From: a virus
Taxonomy: Duplodnaviria > Caudoviricetes
Strand: one strand, 5' to 3'
IMG/VR virus record: IMGVR_UViG_3300033121_002300
Location: 18,084 to 82,083 of that record
DNA: 64,000 bases
The stretch's first letter is position 1, and the number at the start of each line of letters is the position of its first letter. Below are positions 6,371-64,000 of this stretch, piece by piece. A program made the position numbers and the translations under genes. The notes under the pieces were generated by a model, which ran no database searches, was not told the origin of the DNA, and saw nothing but the letters and a program-made list of their open reading frames with translations.

Positions 6371-6526
6371 ATGAAAAAAAGGCTTAGAAAGCCTGGGGTC
6401 TTGTATATTAATTTTTTGGGTGAACCCCACACCCTAAAAGAATTACTGCAAAAAACACTAGGAGCTTTAATGCTCTTATTGTTTTTTGCGGTATTTTATA
6501 TCCTGCTTTTCATAATAGCAGGATAA
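6371..6526 (+). CDS. 51-aa membrane microprotein (not in ORF track)
   Basis: MKKRLRKPGVLYINFLGEPHTLKELLQKTLGALMLLLFFAVFYILLFIIAG; RBS agagg; lies between the promoter motif and a terminator. Confidence 0.65.
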   Translation: MKKRLRKPGVLYINFLGEPHTLKELLQKTLGALMLLLFFAVFYILLFIIAG

Positions 6527-9019: not shown

Positions 9020-10036
9020 ATGTTATCTAATTCTATTTTAGACATCTCAGATGATAACCAGAAAGCTATATTGAAAATAATAGAGAAAGAGACCGAGATT
9101 CCGGTGTTTGTCAAAACAGCTTCAGTAACTGAGGAAAAAAAAGTTTATGCCATTCCTGAGATGAAAAAATTTGCATGTGACACTCCTTCAGATATATGGT
9201 TAAGTTATCAATATCTAAAGAAAACAGCTTCAAATTTAAAACCTTATGTAGCTGATGTTGCTATGAGAAATATAATGAAATACGCTAATTGGATGGGTGT
9301 AAATCTCAATTCAAGGGAGAAAAATATTGAATTAAAAGAAGAATATGAAATAGATAAAAATGATTTTGCACTAAGGATTCCTAAGAATGAACTTTCTGAA
9401 GAATTTTTATCTAAAAATGCCAGTTACATTTATGGAAACGATTTAGTTTTATATCCCTTAAATAATAAGGAAAATATTAAAAAAGCTAATATGAATTTCC
9501 CAAAAGGATTAGATGGAGATTTAGAAGGCTTTCGCCCTATGGTAGCAACCGGAATATCAGAAAAACTCCCGAAAGATGAATTATCAAGTCAGGTTAAATC
9601 CTATTTACCTATTCCAAAATCAGCCGCTATTAATCAAATTGAATATAGAGAAAATAAATTCCCATTATGGAAGGATGACTACAACAGGGTCAAAAAAATG
9701 ATTCAAGAAGAAAATCCTAATATAATTAAAGCTGCAAGTGAGTTAGAAAAAATAGATGATAAAGTTGGAGCATCTGTTTTATATGGTGATAATTTTTTAT
9801 CACCTTTAAGATATTTACAAGGGATATATGACGACACTGATTATTCATATAAAAAGGTAAAACTTGCTTCAAAGGAAATATTTTTTAGGGACTTACTATC
9901 CAAGAAAGCTGAATTAATTGATTCAATTCCTGAAACATCAGATGATGACTTCAAATCTCCTGCTACTTTTAATCAATATTATTCACAAAAACCTGAATAC
10001 TTAAAACAAGCAATCGGAGTTATATTAAATGGATGA
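9020..10036 (+). CDS. Head-associated hypothetical protein with K-x-A-S motifs
   Basis: FVKTAS, LKKTAS, VKLAS motifs; two genes upstream of the portal. Confidence 0.5.
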   Translation: MLSNSILDISDDNQKAILKIIEKETEIPVFVKTASVTEEKKVYAIPEMKKFACDTPSDIWLSYQYLKKTASNLKPYVADVAMRNIMKYANWMGVNLNSREKNIELKEEYEIDKNDFALRIPKNELSEEFLSKNASYIYGNDLVLYPLNNKENIKKANMNFPKGLDGDLEGFRPMVATGISEKLPKDELSSQVKSYLPIPKSAAINQIEYRENKFPLWKDDYNRVKKMIQEENPNIIKAASELEKIDDKVGASVLYGDNFLSPLRYLQGIYDDTDYSYKKVKLASKEIFFRDLLSKKAELIDSIPETSDDDFKSPATFNQYYSQKPEYLKQAIGVILNG

Positions 10037-32007: not shown

Positions 32008-33243
32008 TTATTCTCCGCCTAATGCAACGTATTCAAACAAACTGGCTTCTTTTTTGAAATTTTCATTATAAACCTGTTCAAAAATTTCACCAACATATGC
32101 TTTAGCAGCCAAAGCCATAGGGTCTGAAACATTAGCTGATTTTTGCAACTCATTAACATCTATCCCAAGATCAGCAAGAGCTTGATTATAACCATCAGCA
32201 AAAATTTCGCTTCCCATTGACTGCTCTTTTGTCATTCTGTTATAACCATACAGTCCAGCCCCACCTAAAGCAGCAGCTCCAACACCAGCTTGAACATAAG
32301 GGTTTTTAGCTGCATTCATAACATGAGCCGCACCTTGTCTTAATGTATCAGAAGCCTGGTTATAAGCAGCATTAGCTCTTCCAGAAAAAGAACGAGCGTA
32401 GGCTTCTTGATTTGCCTGCTGAATAGCCGCATGAGCCTGAGCAGCTCTTTCAGCTTCCATCATCGCAGCTTGAGATCTTGTAGGCATGCCTCTCATGTGA
32501 GCAACTCCGTCCCCTGCCATTCCATAAAGTTCTTTAGCACCAGAAGCTATTGATTTTCTACCTTTATAAGCACCGAGAGCAGCTAGACCTGCAGCTCCTA
32601 ATCCCGCACCTATCGAACCGTATCCAGCAGCTCTTTCAACGCCAGGTGAAGCTCTCAATATATCATCAAGATTAATCTGACTTTCTAGGTGAGAAATATC
32701 TCTAATTTCATTTTTTACAGAGCTTGGCAATACTCTATTTCCAAGATCCATAACACGCTGATCAACAGCGCCAGCTAACCCTTTAATAGAACTCCCGGCA
32801 GCCCTGAGTTTATTTGCGGCGCTTGCCTTAAGACCTTTAATAGCCTCCATCCCCGCTGTGGCTGCGGATGCTGTTTTAACAGCAAAACCATTCCCTGTAT
32901 CGTACATGTTTCCCCCTTTGTTAACTGATTCTCTTATGATATTAGCATGTTTGGCAATATTAATAGCCTGTAAAGCTGCAACTTTATCTAACTTAAACAT
33001 AGTCTGTTCATCTAAGTTAGACACAGCCTGCTTGAAAGCATCCTCAATGGTTGAGGCTTTTTTTTCTTCTTTTTTTTCTTCTTTTTTATCCTCTTCCTTC
33101 TTATCTTCTTTCTTTTCCTTTTTGTCTTCTTTTTCTTCTTCATCTTCTTTCTTTTTATCTTTTTTTTCTTCTTCTTTTTCAGAAGCAGACTTATTGAGAC
33201 TACCAGAAAGATGGTTGTTAATAAAATCCTGCAAAGATGGCAT
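32008..33243 (-). CDS. Scaffold/internal head protein with E/K-rich tract and Gly/Ala-rich helices
   Basis: LNKSAS-EKEEEKKDKKK...EKKAS; GAGLGAAGLAALGAY and GVGAAALGGAGLYGY segments. Confidence 0.6.
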   Translation of the reverse strand: MPSLQDFINNHLSGSLNKSASEKEEEKKDKKKEDEEEKEDKKEKKEDKKEEDKKEEKKEEKKASTIEDAFKQAVSNLDEQTMFKLDKVAALQAINIAKHANIIRESVNKGGNMYDTGNGFAVKTASAATAGMEAIKGLKASAANKLRAAGSSIKGLAGAVDQRVMDLGNRVLPSSVKNEIRDISHLESQINLDDILRASPGVERAAGYGSIGAGLGAAGLAALGAYKGRKSIASGAKELYGMAGDGVAHMRGMPTRSQAAMMEAERAAQAHAAIQQANQEAYARSFSGRANAAYNQASDTLRQGAAHVMNAAKNPYVQAGVGAAALGGAGLYGYNRMTKEQSMGSEIFADGYNQALADLGIDVNELQKSANVSDPMALAAKAYVGEIFEQVYNENFKKEASLFEYVALGGE

Positions 33244-46392: not shown

Positions 46393-46841
46393 ATGTTGAG
46401 TTATATTATTGAAAAGTGTTTAATTGAAAAAAAGCATTTATGGATTATTTCAAAGAAAAAAAACATAAGAAAATAATAAGGGATTTAAGTAAACAAAAAG
46501 AAATTGCAGAGCTTGAAGATGCTATTGCATATCACAAAGCAAGAGTTCAACATGGGGCATCTTTTGAAAGTAAAATAAATGAACCTTCAATAAATATAGC
46601 AAATGAACTACGGGGTGGAATTAAGGATGTTGGGGATGTTGTTTCCGATGTAATAAAAGAACAGAGAGAAACTAAAATAAAAGGAATCGAAAGAGTTGTT
46701 GATAGAGTAGGTGATAATGTAGTCCAAGTTGCAGAAAAACTTAAACCGTTATACCCATTTCTCGGAACAGCAGCTGTAATAGGAGCAGCAGGCGGTTTAG
46801 TTAAACCAATAGCTCATTTATCCGGATATCAGGAAAAATAA
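46393..46841 (+). CDS. Leader-bearing virion protein interrupted by a -1 frameshift at 46428-46434 (body ORF 46440-46841)
   Basis: RBS gtgagg + ATG 46393 gives MLSYIIEKCLIEKK; a -1 shift continues as AFMDYF...; C-terminal FLGTAAVIGAAGGLV helix. Confidence 0.6.
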
Positions 46842-48594: not shown

Positions 48595-50235
48595 ATGCAA
48601 ACTCCGGCAGAAAAAGGACCAGCCAATAATACTTTAAAAGTATTAACAGCTCTGAATCAATTCGATGATGAAAATAAGGAAATCGAATATCTTCTAAAAA
48701 GCGATCTTGCTGAAGCAATGGTTTTACTTAAAGGTAAAGTAATCTCTTATACCGATTACCCTATTCAAAAAGAAGTAATGAATTGCGACTCACATGAAAT
48801 TCTTTATTTTGGCGGAAGACAAATTAGTAAATCAACACTAGAGGGGGTTGATATAATAATTGATTGTATTTTACATGAATGGCTTTCTACTTTATACGTT
48901 GCCCCTGAATTAAATCAAGTAAAAGAATTTTCCACAATGAAGCTGAAGGCTATAATAGAAAAGTCACCTCAAGTTCAGGAATATATAGATTCAAGTTGCC
49001 TTACAAATGTATTTGAAAAGAGCTTCACAACAAATTCCCGTGTTGTTTTAAGGGCTATTAGCCAGGAAATAAGAGGTATAGAGGCAATGAAGATCAGAGA
49101 AGATGAAATACAAGATGCCACTATTGACGAGCTTAGATTAATTGAAATAGTTTTAGACGGTCAAAAGGAGTGGTGGAAATTTAGAGCAGGAACAGCTAAA
49201 ACATTAAATAACCCCATTGAGTACTATAGAAAACGTTCAAAGCAAATGGTCCCAGTTCTAAAATGCCCTGAATGTAGTTATCATAACATTCCAAGTCTTG
49301 ATAATATAAAACCAGATGGACTTAAGTGTAAAAAATGCAAGGGAGCTTTTCTAAGCGTAAGACAACCGTATCTTACAATGCAATGTATAGCAAATAAAGA
49401 TAATGATGCAGTATCTTTTTGGGTTCCACAAATCGCACTTCCCCTTCACGTTGAAGATAAAACGAAATGGCGTGAAGTTTATCGAAAATTTACAGAATAT
49501 CCAACAGAACAATTCTTAAATGAAGTTATGGGAATCTCTGCCGGTTCAGCTTACGGTTTAATAACCGAAGAGGATTTAGTTAAATGCTGTAAAAATAATA
49601 ATGGAATTGATTCATTTGAAATCAAGGAAAATCTACCAACAAATTTAGGGTTTAATTTATATATGGGAATAGATTGGGGATTAACTCAATTTGTTTCATT
49701 TACAGTTGTAAGCATATGTGGATATAATCCATTAACAAAAAGATTCACCGTTATTTACATGGAAATGGTTTTAAATCCAGATCCGGATTATCAGGTTGAA
49801 CGATGCTTTCATCTCGCTAGGAAATTCGGAGTATCAGTAGTAATACCAGATGCCGGTAGCGGATTCGATAGAAACTTCGAGCTAAAAAAAATGCTCTCAA
49901 TATTTAAAGTTCCGGTATATCCTATGTATAACGTTAAACAAAAGGAAGTTATAAGATGGGATGAAGTTGAAGAAAACTATAAAATTGATAGAACAAAAAG
50001 CTTGACGGATACATTTAAAGCTATCAGGAAAACAAAGATACATTTTTTTAGCTGGGATAGATTTAAGTATTTTGCACCACATTTTTTAGCAGAATACATT
50101 GAATGGGGTAAAGACAAAAATGGAAATCCAACCGTAAAATACGACCACGATCCTGATAATCCAGATGATTCATTACACTCAGTAAATGTCGTTAGAACTT
50201 ATTTAAAGCATATCATGCCAGCAAATACAGTTTAG
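48595..50235 (+). CDS. terL: Terminase large subunit
   Basis: Walker A GGRQISKS, Walker B IREDEIQD, RNase H-like YMGIDWG, C-terminal PDDSLHS; CPEC/CKKC ribbon. Confidence 0.9.
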   Translation: MQTPAEKGPANNTLKVLTALNQFDDENKEIEYLLKSDLAEAMVLLKGKVISYTDYPIQKEVMNCDSHEILYFGGRQISKSTLEGVDIIIDCILHEWLSTLYVAPELNQVKEFSTMKLKAIIEKSPQVQEYIDSSCLTNVFEKSFTTNSRVVLRAISQEIRGIEAMKIREDEIQDATIDELRLIEIVLDGQKEWWKFRAGTAKTLNNPIEYYRKRSKQMVPVLKCPECSYHNIPSLDNIKPDGLKCKKCKGAFLSVRQPYLTMQCIANKDNDAVSFWVPQIALPLHVEDKTKWREVYRKFTEYPTEQFLNEVMGISAGSAYGLITEEDLVKCCKNNNGIDSFEIKENLPTNLGFNLYMGIDWGLTQFVSFTVVSICGYNPLTKRFTVIYMEMVLNPDPDYQVERCFHLARKFGVSVVIPDAGSGFDRNFELKKMLSIFKVPVYPMYNVKQKEVIRWDEVEENYKIDRTKSLTDTFKAIRKTKIHFFSWDRFKYFAPHFLAEYIEWGKDKNGNPTVKYDHDPDNPDDSLHSVNVVRTYLKHIMPANTV

Positions 50236-57901: not shown

Positions 57902-59728
57902 ATGAAAACAACATTAGGAAATATTTTAATAAATGAAGTTTTACCGGAAAACATGCGGGATTACAACCGGCAAATGGACAAAAAAAATCTGAAATCAACT
58001 CTTCAGAAAATAGGACAAGAGCAACCTCATGATTATCCAAGAATAATTCAGGAATTAAAAAAAATAGGAGACAATCACTCTTTTCTATTGGGTTCGAGTT
58101 TTTCCATTAAAGATTTTAAACCGAAAGACATAGAACCTATTTATAAGAAGTATGATAAGGAAATATTATCTGCTATTAAAATAAAGTCTGATGTAGAAAG
58201 AGAAAAGGCTATGACCGACATTCACGCCAAGATAGATTTTGAAATAGAATCTAAGGTAAAAGAAGAATTGAAAAATCCAAATGACTTTCATAAATGGGTT
58301 GTATCCGGAGCTAAAGGTAATCTTAATAACATTAAACAAATGCATTATGCTGTCGGAAATCAAGTTAATGTAAAAAACAAGGTAATGCCTCATTTTGTTC
58401 GTGGGAATTTATCTGATGGATTATCTCCTGTTGATTATTTTGTTGCGGCAGCGGGAGCAAGAAAAGGTGTGGTAGGATCTTTCATTGCGGTTCAAGAACC
58501 TGGTGCATTTGCTAAAGAAATAAATACTTTAACGAATGACATGATCACAAGTCAGCATGACTGTGGAACTCATCAAGGTGAAATATATCCAGTAATGAGT
58601 ATGGATATTCTTGATAGAATGCTATGCAATGATGCTGGAAATTTCAAAAGAAATCAAGTAATAACACCATCGGTTCAGGATCATCTTAAGAAAGAAGGAG
58701 TTACTGAAGTTTCTGTAAGAACCCCTCTTCATTGTCAAGCAAAAGAAGGGGTATGTGCAATGTGCCTTGGTTTACTTGAAGATGGAACGGTTTCACCTAT
58801 TGGAGATACGATAGGAACAAGATCCGCTCAATCAATAGAGGAACCGCTAACTCAGATGGCATTATCATCTAAGCACTCTGGCGGTATAGTAAATAAAAAA
58901 TCAGCTTTCGGAACGGCAAAGCAAGTTATGCATGTTCCTGAAAATTTTCCCGGAGGTGCTGTTTTATCTTTAGAAAATGGTAAAATTGATAAGATAACAC
59001 ATTCCCCAGATGGAGGGAAAAATATATTTATAAACAATATTCCTCATTATGCATTACCATCTCATGAAATTAAAGTAAATGAAGGTGACACCGTTCATAA
59101 GGGAGACATGTTAACAGATGGAATTCCGAATCCAGCAAAAATCATTGAACTAAAAGGAATGATGGAAGGCAGAAAATCAATGGTAAATACATTAAGAGAT
59201 GTATATGAAAGTAACGGAATACAGGTTCATCCAAAGGTGTTGGAAACAGTTGTACGAGCCACAATGAATCTTGGAAGAGTTATAGATCCTGGAGATCATA
59301 TTGACCATAATATTGGAGATATAGTAAGATGGAATCAAAGTCAAGATCTAACAAAAGAAACCCATGAATTGAAACAGGTAAATGAAGACTTAATAGGTTT
59401 TAGAAATAGTGAAGCTATAAATCGTGGTCGCTTGAATATCCCGCAAGGGACGATTATAACACCAGACTTAGCCAATGATCTTTTATCCCATCAGATAAAA
59501 GAATTAAAAGTTCACAAGAAACCATTACAACTTCAACCTTTTATGTTAGGAACAGAAAGAGCCGCTCTTCATAAAAACGATTGGTTAAGTAATATGGGAT
59601 TTAGATTTGTTAAGAATCAACTTTTGGATAATATAGGTATAATGAAAGGGACAAATTTACACTCATATGATCCGATACCAAGTTACGTTTCAGGAAATTT
59701 TGGATTTTCCGAAGGAGGAAGATTTTAA
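57902..59728 (+). CDS. rpoC: RNA polymerase beta' C-terminal subunit (bridge helix, trigger loop, second Zn site)
   Basis: SGAKGN, GARKG, DCGT, RTPLHC...GVCAMCLG, SAQSIEEPLTQMALSSKH. Confidence 0.92.
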   Translation: MKTTLGNILINEVLPENMRDYNRQMDKKNLKSTLQKIGQEQPHDYPRIIQELKKIGDNHSFLLGSSFSIKDFKPKDIEPIYKKYDKEILSAIKIKSDVEREKAMTDIHAKIDFEIESKVKEELKNPNDFHKWVVSGAKGNLNNIKQMHYAVGNQVNVKNKVMPHFVRGNLSDGLSPVDYFVAAAGARKGVVGSFIAVQEPGAFAKEINTLTNDMITSQHDCGTHQGEIYPVMSMDILDRMLCNDAGNFKRNQVITPSVQDHLKKEGVTEVSVRTPLHCQAKEGVCAMCLGLLEDGTVSPIGDTIGTRSAQSIEEPLTQMALSSKHSGGIVNKKSAFGTAKQVMHVPENFPGGAVLSLENGKIDKITHSPDGGKNIFINNIPHYALPSHEIKVNEGDTVHKGDMLTDGIPNPAKIIELKGMMEGRKSMVNTLRDVYESNGIQVHPKVLETVVRATMNLGRVIDPGDHIDHNIGDIVRWNQSQDLTKETHELKQVNEDLIGFRNSEAINRGRLNIPQGTIITPDLANDLLSHQIKELKVHKKPLQLQPFMLGTERAALHKNDWLSNMGFRFVKNQLLDNIGIMKGTNLHSYDPIPSYVSGNFGFSEGGRF

Positions 59729-60023: not shown

Positions 60024-62411
60024 ATGTTAAAAGAATTAATTGTAAATAAAACAGCTGAAATCAGAAAAAAAAATAAATGGAAAGAAGAATTTGGGGACAT
60101 AAAAACTCAAAATCCTCTTTTAGATCCTGGTGGAGCAATGCCGGTTGGAAAACCTTATACAAATACGACTCAAGCTGTCCCCGTTGGTAAATCTTATACA
60201 AATACAACCCAATCGGTACCGGTTGGAAGCCCTTACACCACTCAGTCAGTTGTCCCTTATAACAATCAAACGCAGGTTGTATCACCAAGCAATGCAATCA
60301 GACTAGGCGCAAAACCTGATGCTGAGGTTAATATAGGCCCCACATTTTACTCTAACATGCAAAGATCTACTGATAAAAGAGAATTAATCCCATCAACTGG
60401 TAATTCAATCATTAATCAAACTCAAGTTGCATCTTCGGGGAATCAAAATACAGCTCAGTCAGTTGTCCCTTATAACAATCAAACTCAAGTTGCATCTTCG
60501 GGGAATCAAAATACAGCTCAGTCAGTTGTCCCTTATAACAATCAAACTCAAGTTGCATCTAATATAAAAAACCTTTCTACAAATAGTATAAATACAACTC
60601 AAGCTGTTCCGGTTGGGAACTCTTACGGCACAACAATAGGTTCAACTCAAAAACAAATAAGGCAACTTACATCAGGTTCTCCAAACATAAATCAATCAAC
60701 TTCTTCTGGTAATAACTTTAATCCCCCAAAAAAACAAGACCCTAATTTTCAAACAAAAGGAAAGCCTTACAATACAGGCGGAACACCTCCTGAAACGGGA
60801 ATAGTTCGATATCAACAGCCTCAACATAATACTCAGTCAAAGGCTTATAATTCATCTAAAAACAGCTCACCGTCAGAAAAAAATAAAGCCGAACAAAAAA
60901 AAATACTTTCCGCCGAAGAAAAAAAGCAAAAATTTGATAAACTAATGTCAGAAGGACTACCAAGTGGAACAACTGAAAAGAGCAGATATGAAGCTCAATT
61001 GAATGATCCAAATAATTCACCGGAAATGAGAAAAAAAATTGAAGAACGATACAATAGGGTTAAACAAAATCAAAGTCAATCGAGTTCAACTGAGCCTGCT
61101 AAAAATAATATCCCACCAGAATCAGGTTCTCAACAGCCAAAAGGAAATTCTCAGGCCGGATCTTCTGTTCCACCTAAAAACAATGTCCCGCCGGAAAAAG
61201 GCTTTAATGAAGCTTTCAATTTAGACAAAATTCAAAAAGGATGGCAATCAGGGGTTGAAGGAACTGGTGGTGCATTGAAGCAAAGTCTACAATCACTATC
61301 AAATAAATTTTTAGGTACAGGATTTGCAGCTCAAGGCGGAGCTGGACCTGTAAACATGAAAAACCTAGAGAACTTGACAGGCGTAAAAGGAGCCCTGGCA
61401 AGAGGTGCAACCAGCGCATTCCAGCATGGCGGAGTGTTTGATAAGGCAGTTGGGGCTATAGGTAAACATGGGTTAAAAGGTTTAGCGGCGGGGGCTGGAA
61501 TATTAGGAGCAGGGGCGTTAGCGAAAGGAGTTGGTGGAATAGCCAGGTATGCAGTTAACAATGCAGGTGTACTTCCAACCGTTGCAGCCGGAGCTGCTGG
61601 TTTAGCTCATTTGTTTGGAAAACCAGATTTAGGAAATCAAATATCTTCAGGTCTTAAAACATTTAACAAAACAATGAAAGGAGCGAATATGAATATAGAG
61701 CAAGAATACATCATGAGAAAGGTTGCATCACAGGTAAATGATTATATTCCGGATGGATATAAATCAATAGAGGATACAGAATTGTCTGAAAAAAAGGCTT
61801 CCGTTTTACCTAAAATTAAAAGTGAAGCAGAGTTAATGGAGCTCCTTGGTGACTCAATTCCTTTGGATGTAAGAGAAAAAATATGGCAAGGTTTTTCTCA
61901 ATTAAGAAGAAGGGATAACACACAAAGAGCTCTTGAATTAGGGGCAGGCACCGCACTAGGTGTTGTAGGCGGAATAGCTTCAAATATACTGACCGACAAC
62001 ATAAGACAGGTAACAGGGAACCCTAATAGACCTCAAATTGTTATAGCTACACCTCAAGCTGTTAAATCTATAAAGGCAAACAATAGAATGGAATCAAATA
62101 TAAAAGAAGCAAGTGAATTAAATACACTTTCTCAAGCCATAGAAGACGGAATCCGAGCCGCTCATCATAAGGACTTTCTGGAAAGCGGAGCAGAAAAATT
62201 ACATAAATTTGTGAAGCTAAACCCAAAACTCTCACCTTATTTGGCCGGTATGGGAACAATGGCATTTGGTCCGGGATTGGTTAATCAATTAACTGGAGCA
62301 GCCGGTTCTGGATATAACTTTCTACAATCACAATACAATAATTTAAACTATGGATATAATGCAGGAGGATACGGAAATCCTTACGGTTATGGTGGTTACT
62401 ATGGCTACTAA
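60024..62411 (+). CDS. Large leader-bearing low-complexity virion protein
   Basis: MLKELIVNKTAE; Q/N/T/P/S-rich repeats, Gly/Ala-rich helices, internal RKVAS and EKKAS, Tyr/Gly-rich tail. Confidence 0.65.
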   Translation: MLKELIVNKTAEIRKKNKWKEEFGDIKTQNPLLDPGGAMPVGKPYTNTTQAVPVGKSYTNTTQSVPVGSPYTTQSVVPYNNQTQVVSPSNAIRLGAKPDAEVNIGPTFYSNMQRSTDKRELIPSTGNSIINQTQVASSGNQNTAQSVVPYNNQTQVASSGNQNTAQSVVPYNNQTQVASNIKNLSTNSINTTQAVPVGNSYGTTIGSTQKQIRQLTSGSPNINQSTSSGNNFNPPKKQDPNFQTKGKPYNTGGTPPETGIVRYQQPQHNTQSKAYNSSKNSSPSEKNKAEQKKILSAEEKKQKFDKLMSEGLPSGTTEKSRYEAQLNDPNNSPEMRKKIEERYNRVKQNQSQSSSTEPAKNNIPPESGSQQPKGNSQAGSSVPPKNNVPPEKGFNEAFNLDKIQKGWQSGVEGTGGALKQSLQSLSNKFLGTGFAAQGGAGPVNMKNLENLTGVKGALARGATSAFQHGGVFDKAVGAIGKHGLKGLAAGAGILGAGALAKGVGGIARYAVNNAGVLPTVAAGAAGLAHLFGKPDLGNQISSGLKTFNKTMKGANMNIEQEYIMRKVASQVNDYIPDGYKSIEDTELSEKKASVLPKIKSEAELMELLGDSIPLDVREKIWQGFSQLRRRDNTQRALELGAGTALGVVGGIASNILTDNIRQVTGNPNRPQIVIATPQAVKSIKANNRMESNIKEASELNTLSQAIEDGIRAAHHKDFLESGAEKLHKFVKLNPKLSPYLAGMGTMAFGPGLVNQLTGAAGSGYNFLQSQYNNLNYGYNAGGYGNPYGYGGYYGY
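60414..60560 (+). repeat. Exact in-frame 63-bp tandem repeat (2 copies plus 21 bp)
   Basis: Unit encodes NQTQVASSGNQNTAQSVVPYN; a partial copy lies at about 60240-60283. Confidence 0.95.
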
Positions 62412-63264
62412 TCCAAGTAGGGATGATGTTAAAAACGCTCTTGATACAATATTTTCATTACCTCAAAGTGAGCTGGAAAAAATAATAACTGGAGCTCAGC
62501 AGGTATTTAATTCAAGGGAACACTCCGAGGTTAACGATACTATACCAGCGGAAAGACCTAATCTAAAATTTCCGTCATATATAACTATAACTCACGCTGA
62601 GTGGATTATGACGGAATTTATAAAAGAATTATTTAACAATTACGATGAAGATTATTATATGGCAAATGAGAATGATGCAACCCATGACAATAGTATTATT
62701 GTAACAAATAGCTTCAACGATATAGATGAGAAAATAGGTCAAACACCAAGAATTGTAGTGGACGTAGGGCAATCAGCAGCTTCACAATCTTTTATGGCGA
62801 ATATAAATGCTAAAGCTTCTGATTTTATTTCCCCTGATACAATAAAGGGTAAAAATTCAGCAGCACTTCAATTACCTATTTCAATAAGCGTAATATCCCC
62901 AAAAAAGAATGAATGTAATATTTTAGCCTGTATGATTCAAATGGCTATTATAGAGAACATGGATTTACTTAGAGAAATTTTCAATATCTATAAATTTACT
63001 TTTCCGGCAGTCAATGGAGCAAAACAAATAAAAGATAAAGGCAAATTAATGATGGCTTCGGTTCAACTTCAGATGGAGAGATATGTAAGTTGGTCAACAG
63101 TGCTTAAGATAAAAAGTTACAAAAATCTTTATCTTAGACTTAATGCTTATGGGCACGGAGACAAAACTCCCCCAATAAGAACAATAATATCATCATATGA
63201 CTATCCACTTGATCCTCAGGTGGTAAAAATGCTTGATGAAATGGAAAAGAGGTTTAAAGACTAG
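62401..63264 (+). CDS. Putative tail-completion/terminator protein (start reassigned from 62350 to ATG 62401)
   Basis: RBS ggtgg; IIVTNSF...PRIVVDVG...LPISISVIS pattern. Confidence 0.45.
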   Translation: MATNPSRDDVKNALDTIFSLPQSELEKIITGAQQVFNSREHSEVNDTIPAERPNLKFPSYITITHAEWIMTEFIKELFNNYDEDYYMANENDATHDNSIIVTNSFNDIDEKIGQTPRIVVDVGQSAASQSFMANINAKASDFISPDTIKGKNSAALQLPISISVISPKKNECNILACMIQMAIIENMDLLREIFNIYKFTFPAVNGAKQIKDKGKLMMASVQLQMERYVSWSTVLKIKSYKNLYLRLNAYGHGDKTPPIRTIISSYDYPLDPQVVKMLDEMEKRFKD

Positions 63265-63640
63265 TGATAAATAATATTATTTTAGAAAAAAAGCTTCTAA
63301 ATTAAAAGAAGTCGCCGATGAATTATATCAAGGTCTAAAAGAGACTGCAAAAAAAGAAAGAACAGTTTCGGAATATATAGACAGAGATGTTTTAGGCACC
63401 AGAATGGGAGACTTGAAAAATTGGGCAACCGGAAAAGTTCCAGGTTTAAGTAATTCAAAATATTTAGCTCCAATAGTTGGAACCGGATTAACAGGTTTAT
63501 CTCTTTACGGAGTTCATGATATAATAAATAATAAAAAATATGATTATTCTTTTAATGATGTATATTGGGGTTTAACTGGATTGCCAGTATATGCAGCATA
63601 TAGAGGAACAAAAAAAATAGGAGAAAAATTAAATGTTTGA
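63264..63640 (+). CDS. Leader-bearing protein interrupted by a -1 frameshift at 63287-63293 (body frame open from 63275)
   Basis: GTG 63264 gives MINNIILEKK; a -1 shift continues as ASKLKEVADEL...; TM-like LAPIVGTGLTGLSLYGV. Confidence 0.6.
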
Positions 63641-64000
63641 TGAAATACTAAGAGTCAGCTTAATGAAAATTGCAGAAGGTGAAAATCCAGCTCAGCAACA
63701 ATCAGGACAAAACATTCAGCAAGCAGGTAACGTTCAAGTAAATACCCAGCAACCTCAACAACAACAACAACAAGGTCAAATGGCAAATCCCCAAGATTTA
63801 TTAAAAGAAGGACTTGCTATGATAATGCAAGGAGCTAATGTAATTCAAGAGGTGTTTTCCATGATAGGGATGCCTATGGCTATGCCAAATCAGGCGGGAA
63901 TACAAGTTCCACAAAATCCGCCACCTCAACCAATGAATCAAACACCACCTCAGACAATGGTTCAACAAGCTCCAGCCCTTTCAATACCACAGGTTCAACA
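63633..64000 (+). CDS. Leader-bearing Gln/Pro-rich protein, 3'-truncated by the window edge (not in ORF track)
   Basis: MFDEILRVSLMKIAEGENPAQQQSG...QQPQQQQQQGQM...; RBS aggag; open to the window end. Confidence 0.7.
   Translation, partial: MFDEILRVSLMKIAEGENPAQQQSGQNIQQAGNVQVNTQQPQQQQQQGQMANPQDLLKEGLAMIMQGANVIQEVFSMIGMPMAMPNQAGIQVPQNPPPQPMNQTPPQTMVQQAPALSIPQVQ

Follow-up and report, generated by a model that had tools for sequence, protein, structure and literature searches.

The gene considered here occupies positions 63264-63640 on the + strand of the window, that is, of the whole 64 kb of DNA analysed, which is the last part of an 82,083-bp IMG/VR virus record with a CheckV completeness of 45%. 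Its GTG start codon (63264-63266) has one base (G) in common with the TAG (63262-63264) that ends the upstream 304-aa gene, and a Shine-Dalgarno-like (SD) AAAGAGG, read directly from the sequence at 63246-63252, stands 11 nt before it. Most genes in the contig have GGAG, GAGG or AGGA 5-10 nt before the start. The GTG opens a leader of ten codons in frame 0 (63264-63293, MINNIILEKK), which aligns to the N-termini of two homologous proteins, P0004 and P0005, described below. Frame 0 extends from the GTG for 13 codons (MINNIILEKKLLN) and ends at a TAA (63303-63305), three codons past an A_AAA_AAG heptamer in slippery phase (63287-63293), which is made up of part of an A7 run (63286-63292) and the G at 63293.

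The rest of the gene is in the -1 frame. This frame is open from 63275 to its stop at 63638-63640, and contains no ATG, GTG or TTG before ATG 63404. The gene body in this frame (63293-63640, 115 codons plus the stop), recognised by its coding score and by homology along its full length, consists of 37 codons without a start, followed by the 78 codons that gene callers report. When the two frames are joined at the heptamer, the product is 125 aa long. Glu8 is encoded only in frame 0 (its codon position reads as Arg in the -1 frame) and Ala11 only in the -1 frame, and the change of frame is therefore confined to 63288-63293. The initial annotation had given the overlap of GTG 63264 with the TAG, the frame-0 stop and the -1 frame open from 63275, all with exact coordinates, and was also right that this frame has no ATG before 63404 and that joining at the heptamer yields 125 aa.

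The ATG used by the gene callers (63404-63406) has no SD sequence before it and is probably not the native start. It gives the 78-aa product P0003 (63404-63640), which is the only form in which the public protein collection holds the gene. Since its Met is a Phe in both homologues, P0003 appears to be a truncated call of the 125-aa protein.

The contig has a GC content of about 32%, and its genes include a large terminase subunit, a major head protein and pieces of a split multisubunit RNA polymerase. In the window, the terminase large subunit is at 48595-50235, and a separate ORF, at 57902-59728, matches beta-type profiles of phage RNA polymerase over their C-terminal part. The nearest cultured relative of the terminase large subunit, from Salmonella phage Arash (181 kb), is only 28% identical, and the contig is thus part of the genome of an uncultured phage, roughly 180 kb in size and without close relatives. 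Upstream of the broken gene is a 795-aa protein (60024-62411) that is rich in Gln, Asn and Ser, with near-identical repeats of about 20 residues each in its first third and a Gly/Tyr-rich tail; it has no family match in Pfam or PHROGs. The end of its ORF overlaps the start region of the 304-aa ORF by 62 nt (62350-62411). There is no SD sequence before ATG 62350, and the true start of the 304-aa ORF may be further downstream, for example at ATG 62401.

Coding signal and homologues across the break

The codon tables behind the coding scores were trained on 60 long ORFs from this contig. For the 37 codons at 63293-63403, the -1 frame gives a score of +17.6 to +20 nats, and the other two frames give strongly negative scores. 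For comparison, true in-frame windows of 37 codons have a median score of 14.0 nats, and a score of 17.6 is reached by no off-frame window and by 0.6% of antisense windows. In the 82-kb contig, 124 ORFs have a positive coding score; of their 5' extensions without a start codon, that of the ORF at 63404 is both the longest, at 43 codons, and the best-scoring. The break lies inside a real gene. The coding signal shows no decay over the 37 codons after it, and so either the break is recent or artefactual, or the region is still translated.

A further start-less extension was seen outside the window, where 39 codons without a start lie upstream of a 751-aa ORF (G000:C1:3184-5438, 14,900 to 12,645 bases before the window start). 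Their coding score is mildly positive, at 6.9. This may reflect a wrongly placed start or a further frame break.

The -1-frame translation was used as the query in an exhaustive HMMER search of 1.84 billion representative proteins. It matched only the window's own P0003 (78 aa) and one relative, P0004 (126 aa), with no further homologue of the truncated, 78-aa type. A word-index search with P0004 as query added P0005 (123 aa). These two are the only homologues among the 1.84 billion representatives and 5.8 billion clusters, and the protein family thus has only three known members. Both are unnamed proteins from short Logan contigs, of 1040 bp for P0004 and 2880 bp for P0005. Related DNA was sought more widely: nothing was found among GenBank phages by blastn of 62300-64000 or by tblastn of P0004, nor was a related locus found in IMG/VR with the 304-aa neighbour, P0001, P0004 or the family alignment as queries, or in JGI metagenomes and GTDB genomes. 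A search of IMG/VR for near-identical contigs, using a pattern of exact flanks with free run length, returned none.

The 125-aa joined product aligns from its first to its last residue with both P0004 (65/124 identical, 52%) and P0005 (69/121, 57%), with no gap at the junction. The length of the leader before A-S-K is the same in both homologues, and the first 13 residues are identical at 9/13 and 10/13 positions, which bears out the proposal that the joined product is a real protein starting at GTG 63264. We conclude that a single gene, real and conserved, spans 63264-63640 and encodes a 125-residue protein, and the database annotation of the 78-aa P0003 can be corrected to this 125-aa protein.

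In the homologues the junction reads EKKAS and EKRAS, while the window has E-K-K in frame 0 and A-S in frame -1. Compared at the protein level, each homologue is called as a single ORF in frame across the junction, so that the frame break is kept in neither of these two proteins; the E-K-R-A of P0005 could not be written as A_AAA_AAG in that phase at all. Homologues uniformly in frame (2/2, protein level only) are the outcome that the initial annotation, in asking for a homologue alignment, had named in advance as refuting its -1 frameshift.

The 125-aa protein consists of the ten-residue leader, a charged, helix-prone (amphipathic) segment and a Gly-rich hydrophobic segment, and shares with its homologues an invariant block of 14 residues near the C-terminus. 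Neither the protein nor its neighbours match Pfam or PHROGs, an Atlas search with the 125-aa protein gave scores of 0.82 at most, and the AlphaFold model (pLDDT 47) is too poor for a fold search. Several neighbouring genes begin with similar short leaders. The protein may be cargo that is packaged in the head, a suggestion for which the sole basis is the resemblance of its short leader to those of the T4 internal proteins.

Slippery sites, homopolymer runs and the second broken gene

The initial annotation had proposed a programmed -1 frameshift. The site does have the defining feature of one, namely A_AAA_AAG in the X_XXY_YYZ phase with the -1 frame open to 63640. The stimulators looked for were an SD-like element some 10-14 nt before the heptamer, a stable structure some 5-9 nt past it, or both. 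Between the start codon and the heptamer, a stretch of 22 nt, neither GGAG nor GAGG occurs, nor anything else like an SD sequence. Downstream there is a weak 6-bp hairpin (GCUUCU, 8-nt loop, AGAAGU; 63293-63312), which begins on the last base of the heptamer. Because this leaves no spacer after the heptamer, a ribosome decoding the heptamer would have melted the hairpin beforehand. The predicted fold of the 91 nt around the site is no more stable than those of shuffled sequences (z = -0.01). With homologues in frame, no stimulators and a frame-0 product that is only a 13-residue peptide, the proposal was not upheld: the programmed-frameshift reading fails on two of its three testable defining features.

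Three other routes across the break were considered and rejected. A hungry codon after the heptamer was set aside, as the next 0-frame codon, CTT, is common (21% of Leu codons). A non-canonical start in the -1 frame would have to use an ATA directly before ATG 63404, the sole near-cognate codon there, and the conserved residues would still be lost. Ribosomes reinitiating past the end of the 13-codon ORF would find the next in-frame start at a distance of 99 nt. Slippage by RNA polymerase may be a further route; the only element upstream of the A7 run is an all-A/U palindrome, with no stable hairpin, and the phage encodes its own polymerase. Transcriptional slippage with bacterial RNA polymerase is efficient at runs of about nine bases or more, or at shorter runs behind a nascent-RNA hairpin.

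AAAAAAG occurs 76 times in the contig against 66 expected, and is not enriched. In slippery phase, A_AAA_AAG is found nine times inside the 60 long ORFs, with two each in the 1991-aa and 795-aa genes, and the motif alone is therefore evidently tolerated. Heptamers that lack stimulators raise shifting in E. coli to no more than about 10 times a background of 0.055%, and high levels of shifting need the IS911 or IS3 stimulators (PMC4066793).

There are 158 A/T runs of at least 7 bases in the contig, of which 48 are of eight and 16 of nine or ten. Besides the present one, 126 such runs, A9 and A10 included, lie within 89 predicted genes, and all keep the frame. When the contig was scanned for pairs of ORFs that could be joined at a homopolymer, site 1 (46393-46841) was the only further convincing break. 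On these two grounds, the assembly is not generally error-prone at homopolymers. The initial annotation had likewise judged a blanket homopolymer error unlikely, citing A8 runs at 9135 and 52003, and these do lie within intact ORFs. One or two indels per 82 kb are within the usual output of metagenome assembly. Only 10 of the 126 genic runs lie within the first 15 codons, and a random error would hit a leader only about one time in ten.

Site 1 is on the + strand, and has an ATG with an SD sequence, 14 leader codons, a G-A7-GC 10-mer at 46426-46435 and a body in the -1 frame. The body is a 133-aa ORF with an ATG of its own at 46440, four codons past the break and without an SD sequence. No homologues of site 1 were found. 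The initial annotation had treated the two sites as independent, and a comparison of site 1 with the family of the present gene (site 2) agrees with this (hhalign E = 0.1): judged by sequence, the two genes are unrelated. The site 2 family was also tried as a paralogue of the C-terminal part of the 795-aa protein (E = 0.023), and both relationships were rejected.

The recurrence at site 1 of the 10-mer context GAAAAAAAGC, likewise claimed earlier, is correct. This 10-mer is also present, in frame, at 60918-60927; its 3 occurrences compare with 0.9 expected, and 3 were reached in 8 of 100 shuffles. As a DNA motif, GAAAAAAAGSCTT was rejected, since its 3 occurrences were also reached in 9 of 100 shuffles. 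At the peptide level, E-K-K-A occurs 5 times against 0.7 expected from within-protein shuffles, and [L/I]-x-E-K-K-A 3 times in the proteins of the contig, counting both broken genes as read through, against 0.1 expected; both patterns were picked after seeing the data. The three [L/I]-x-E-K-K-A sites are in the leaders at 46393-46435 and 63264-63296, and inside the 795-aa protein at 61782-61802. This could be a processing or recognition motif of the gene cluster.

The preferred codons of the contig are GAA (78%), AAA (78% of Lys) and GCT (50% of Ala), and hence A8 followed by GCT is the expected spelling of E-K-K-A. We infer that E-K-K-A is most often spelled G-A8-GCT here, and that the present site is this spelling minus one A. 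Intact EKKAS is encoded in the 411-aa gene as GAA AAA AAA GCC TCA (A8; 33052-33066, - strand) and in the 795-aa gene as GAA AAA AAG GCT TCC (A7 then GG; 61788-61802, + strand). The identical 10-mer context is accounted for by the shared peptide motif together with codon bias, and the shared DNA context need not be a nucleic-acid signal.

A 51-aa ORF at 6371-6526 of the window encodes a small hydrophobic protein that starts inside the 13-mer GAAAAAAAGGCTT. This is identical to the 13-mer at 61788, and is not significant as a DNA motif.

Explanations of the break

On the basis of these observations, the break is probably a non-programmed loss of one base in a mutation-prone A-run, real or artefactual, with rare slippage at most restoring the frame. 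We favour this because both homologues are single ORFs and the E-K-R-A of P0005 cannot carry the heptamer. An ancestral GAA AAA AAA GCT, with a presumed A8, would have lost one A within the Lys9-Lys10 codons, and the break would be specific to this lineage or assembly and not a conserved recoding signal. As the sequence stands, ribosomes starting at GTG 63264 would make the 13-residue peptide, and full-length protein would be made only through rare -1 slippage of Lys tRNAs on A_AAA_AAG or, as an alternative and equally rare route, through insertion of an additional A by RNA polymerase at the A7 run; the level of read-through is presumably low. Initiation at ATG 63404 would give a 78-residue fragment without the leader and 37 conserved residues.

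Single bases are gained and lost at raised rates in phage A-runs of at least 6 bases (bioRxiv 10.1101/2025.10.21.683753). The missing base may well be a true allele, for which we would put the chance somewhat below even; that it is an error in the consensus is a more doubtful, though appreciable, possibility. Several points count against a one-base loss. A random consensus error would rarely land within the first 15 codons, the absence of decay in the 37 codons past the break would also suit a region that is still translated, and the in-frame homologues are two proteins from short contigs. At site 1 the identical 10-mer is likewise broken behind a leader, which a shared mechanism would explain better than two separate accidents. 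This coincidence of place is the best argument for something more than accident, and it is because of site 1 and the clean rest of the contig that we leave some room for recoding and for a switch.

The recoding in question would be specific to this lineage, with A_AAA_AAG kept at the leader-body junctions of several small genes, where a -1 ribosomal shift, or slippage by the phage's own RNA polymerase, would yield a small fixed amount of full-length protein. Of the heptamers known in E. coli this is the most prone to shifting (PMC4066793), and its phase is right; site 1 repeats the 10-mer and the layout in an unrelated gene, the coding signal past the break is intact, the contig is otherwise clean at homopolymers, and the phage encodes its own multisubunit RNA polymerase. 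Nevertheless we regard it as unlikely: both homologues are in frame, one of them without the heptamer, there are no stimulators, a 13-residue frame-0 peptide offers no two-product logic, heptamers in slippery phase are tolerated in large genes, and the shared 10-mer is explained by the E-K-K-A peptide and codon bias. Moreover, going by what is generally known of bacterial RNA polymerase, A7 is short for efficient transcriptional slippage. The intact coding sequence downstream and the two leader junctions 'off' in one contig would suit a selected on/off switch (a contingency locus) as well, in which the run flips between A7 and A8 during replication. The record would then be the 'off' state, and the population would be mixed for making the site 2 and site 1 proteins with their leaders. 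The single-base repeat of at least 6 inside an ORF is present (A7, 63286-63292), and in T2 and T4 genes such runs undergo reversible one-base changes at raised rates, giving selectable variation (bioRxiv 10.1101/2025.10.21.683753). Against this, A7 or A8 is rather short for a switch, the 48 runs of eight and 16 longer ones elsewhere are all in frame, and IMG/VR yielded no near-identical contig that might show length variation, and so a switch seems improbable. Finally, there may be no shift at all, the gene starting at ATG 63404 with 78 aa and the upstream open frame and 13-codon ORF being due to chance. This is the gene callers' own call (P0003), and the 139-nt gap that it leaves is not unheard of in the contig. 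It is, though, already contradicted by the homologue alignment, in which P0004 and P0005 have N-termini homologous to the upstream 37 codons and to the ten codons of frame 0, and a Phe in place of Met48; those 37 codons also score as coding, and no SD sequence precedes 63404. We consider it very improbable.

A more general and rather speculative reading, to which we give little weight, is that a Lys-Lys A-run at the junction of a head-targeting-type leader with the body of small accessory proteins acts as a slippage gate that sets the share of protein bearing the leader. It would have the genes at 46393 and 63264 use the same G-A7-GC junction at the shared [L/I]-x-E-K-K-A, and the gate could take the form of a heritable A7/A8 switch or of slippage by polymerase or ribosome. 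If the break is real and shared with site 1, the phage would be tuning or switching leader-bearing, possibly head-packaged, proteins by means of an A-run.

Comparison with known systems

The closest parallels for the heptamer itself are E. coli dnaX and IS3/IS911, which have the identical heptamer in the same phase, with the rest of the protein in the -1 frame. In contrast to these, the present site has no SD-like element upstream and no structure at a working distance downstream, the break comes at codons 9-10 instead of towards the end of the gene, the frame-0 product is a 13-residue peptide, and the break is not kept in homologues.

Rare slippage partly rescues one-base indels in the G-run of herpes simplex thymidine kinase and in the AAA-AAA of the pDEST17 vector (PMC5009743; PMC1851650). 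These cases resemble the present one in having a one-base indel in a run and a useless non-shifted product, the present case being known from sequence alone.

The T4 internal proteins have a leader of about ten residues that targets them to the capsid and is cut off by the prohead protease (PMC9958956). The 125-aa protein has no sequence similarity to T4 proteins and is known here only as a sequence, and no prohead protease family was recognised in the window. It nonetheless resembles IPII and IPIII in being a small protein with a short, conserved N-terminal leader, among neighbours with similar leaders.

In T2 agt the run spans nine bases (288-296) and its reversibility has been measured (bioRxiv 10.1101/2025.10.21.683753), whereas the run here is A7 and is represented by a single sequence. 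Like the contingency loci T2 agt and T4 rIIA, it is an A-run in a phage ORF with a one-base frameshift allele, and A-run switching at this gene, if true, would link it to the recent proposal that phage genomes contain many contingency loci.
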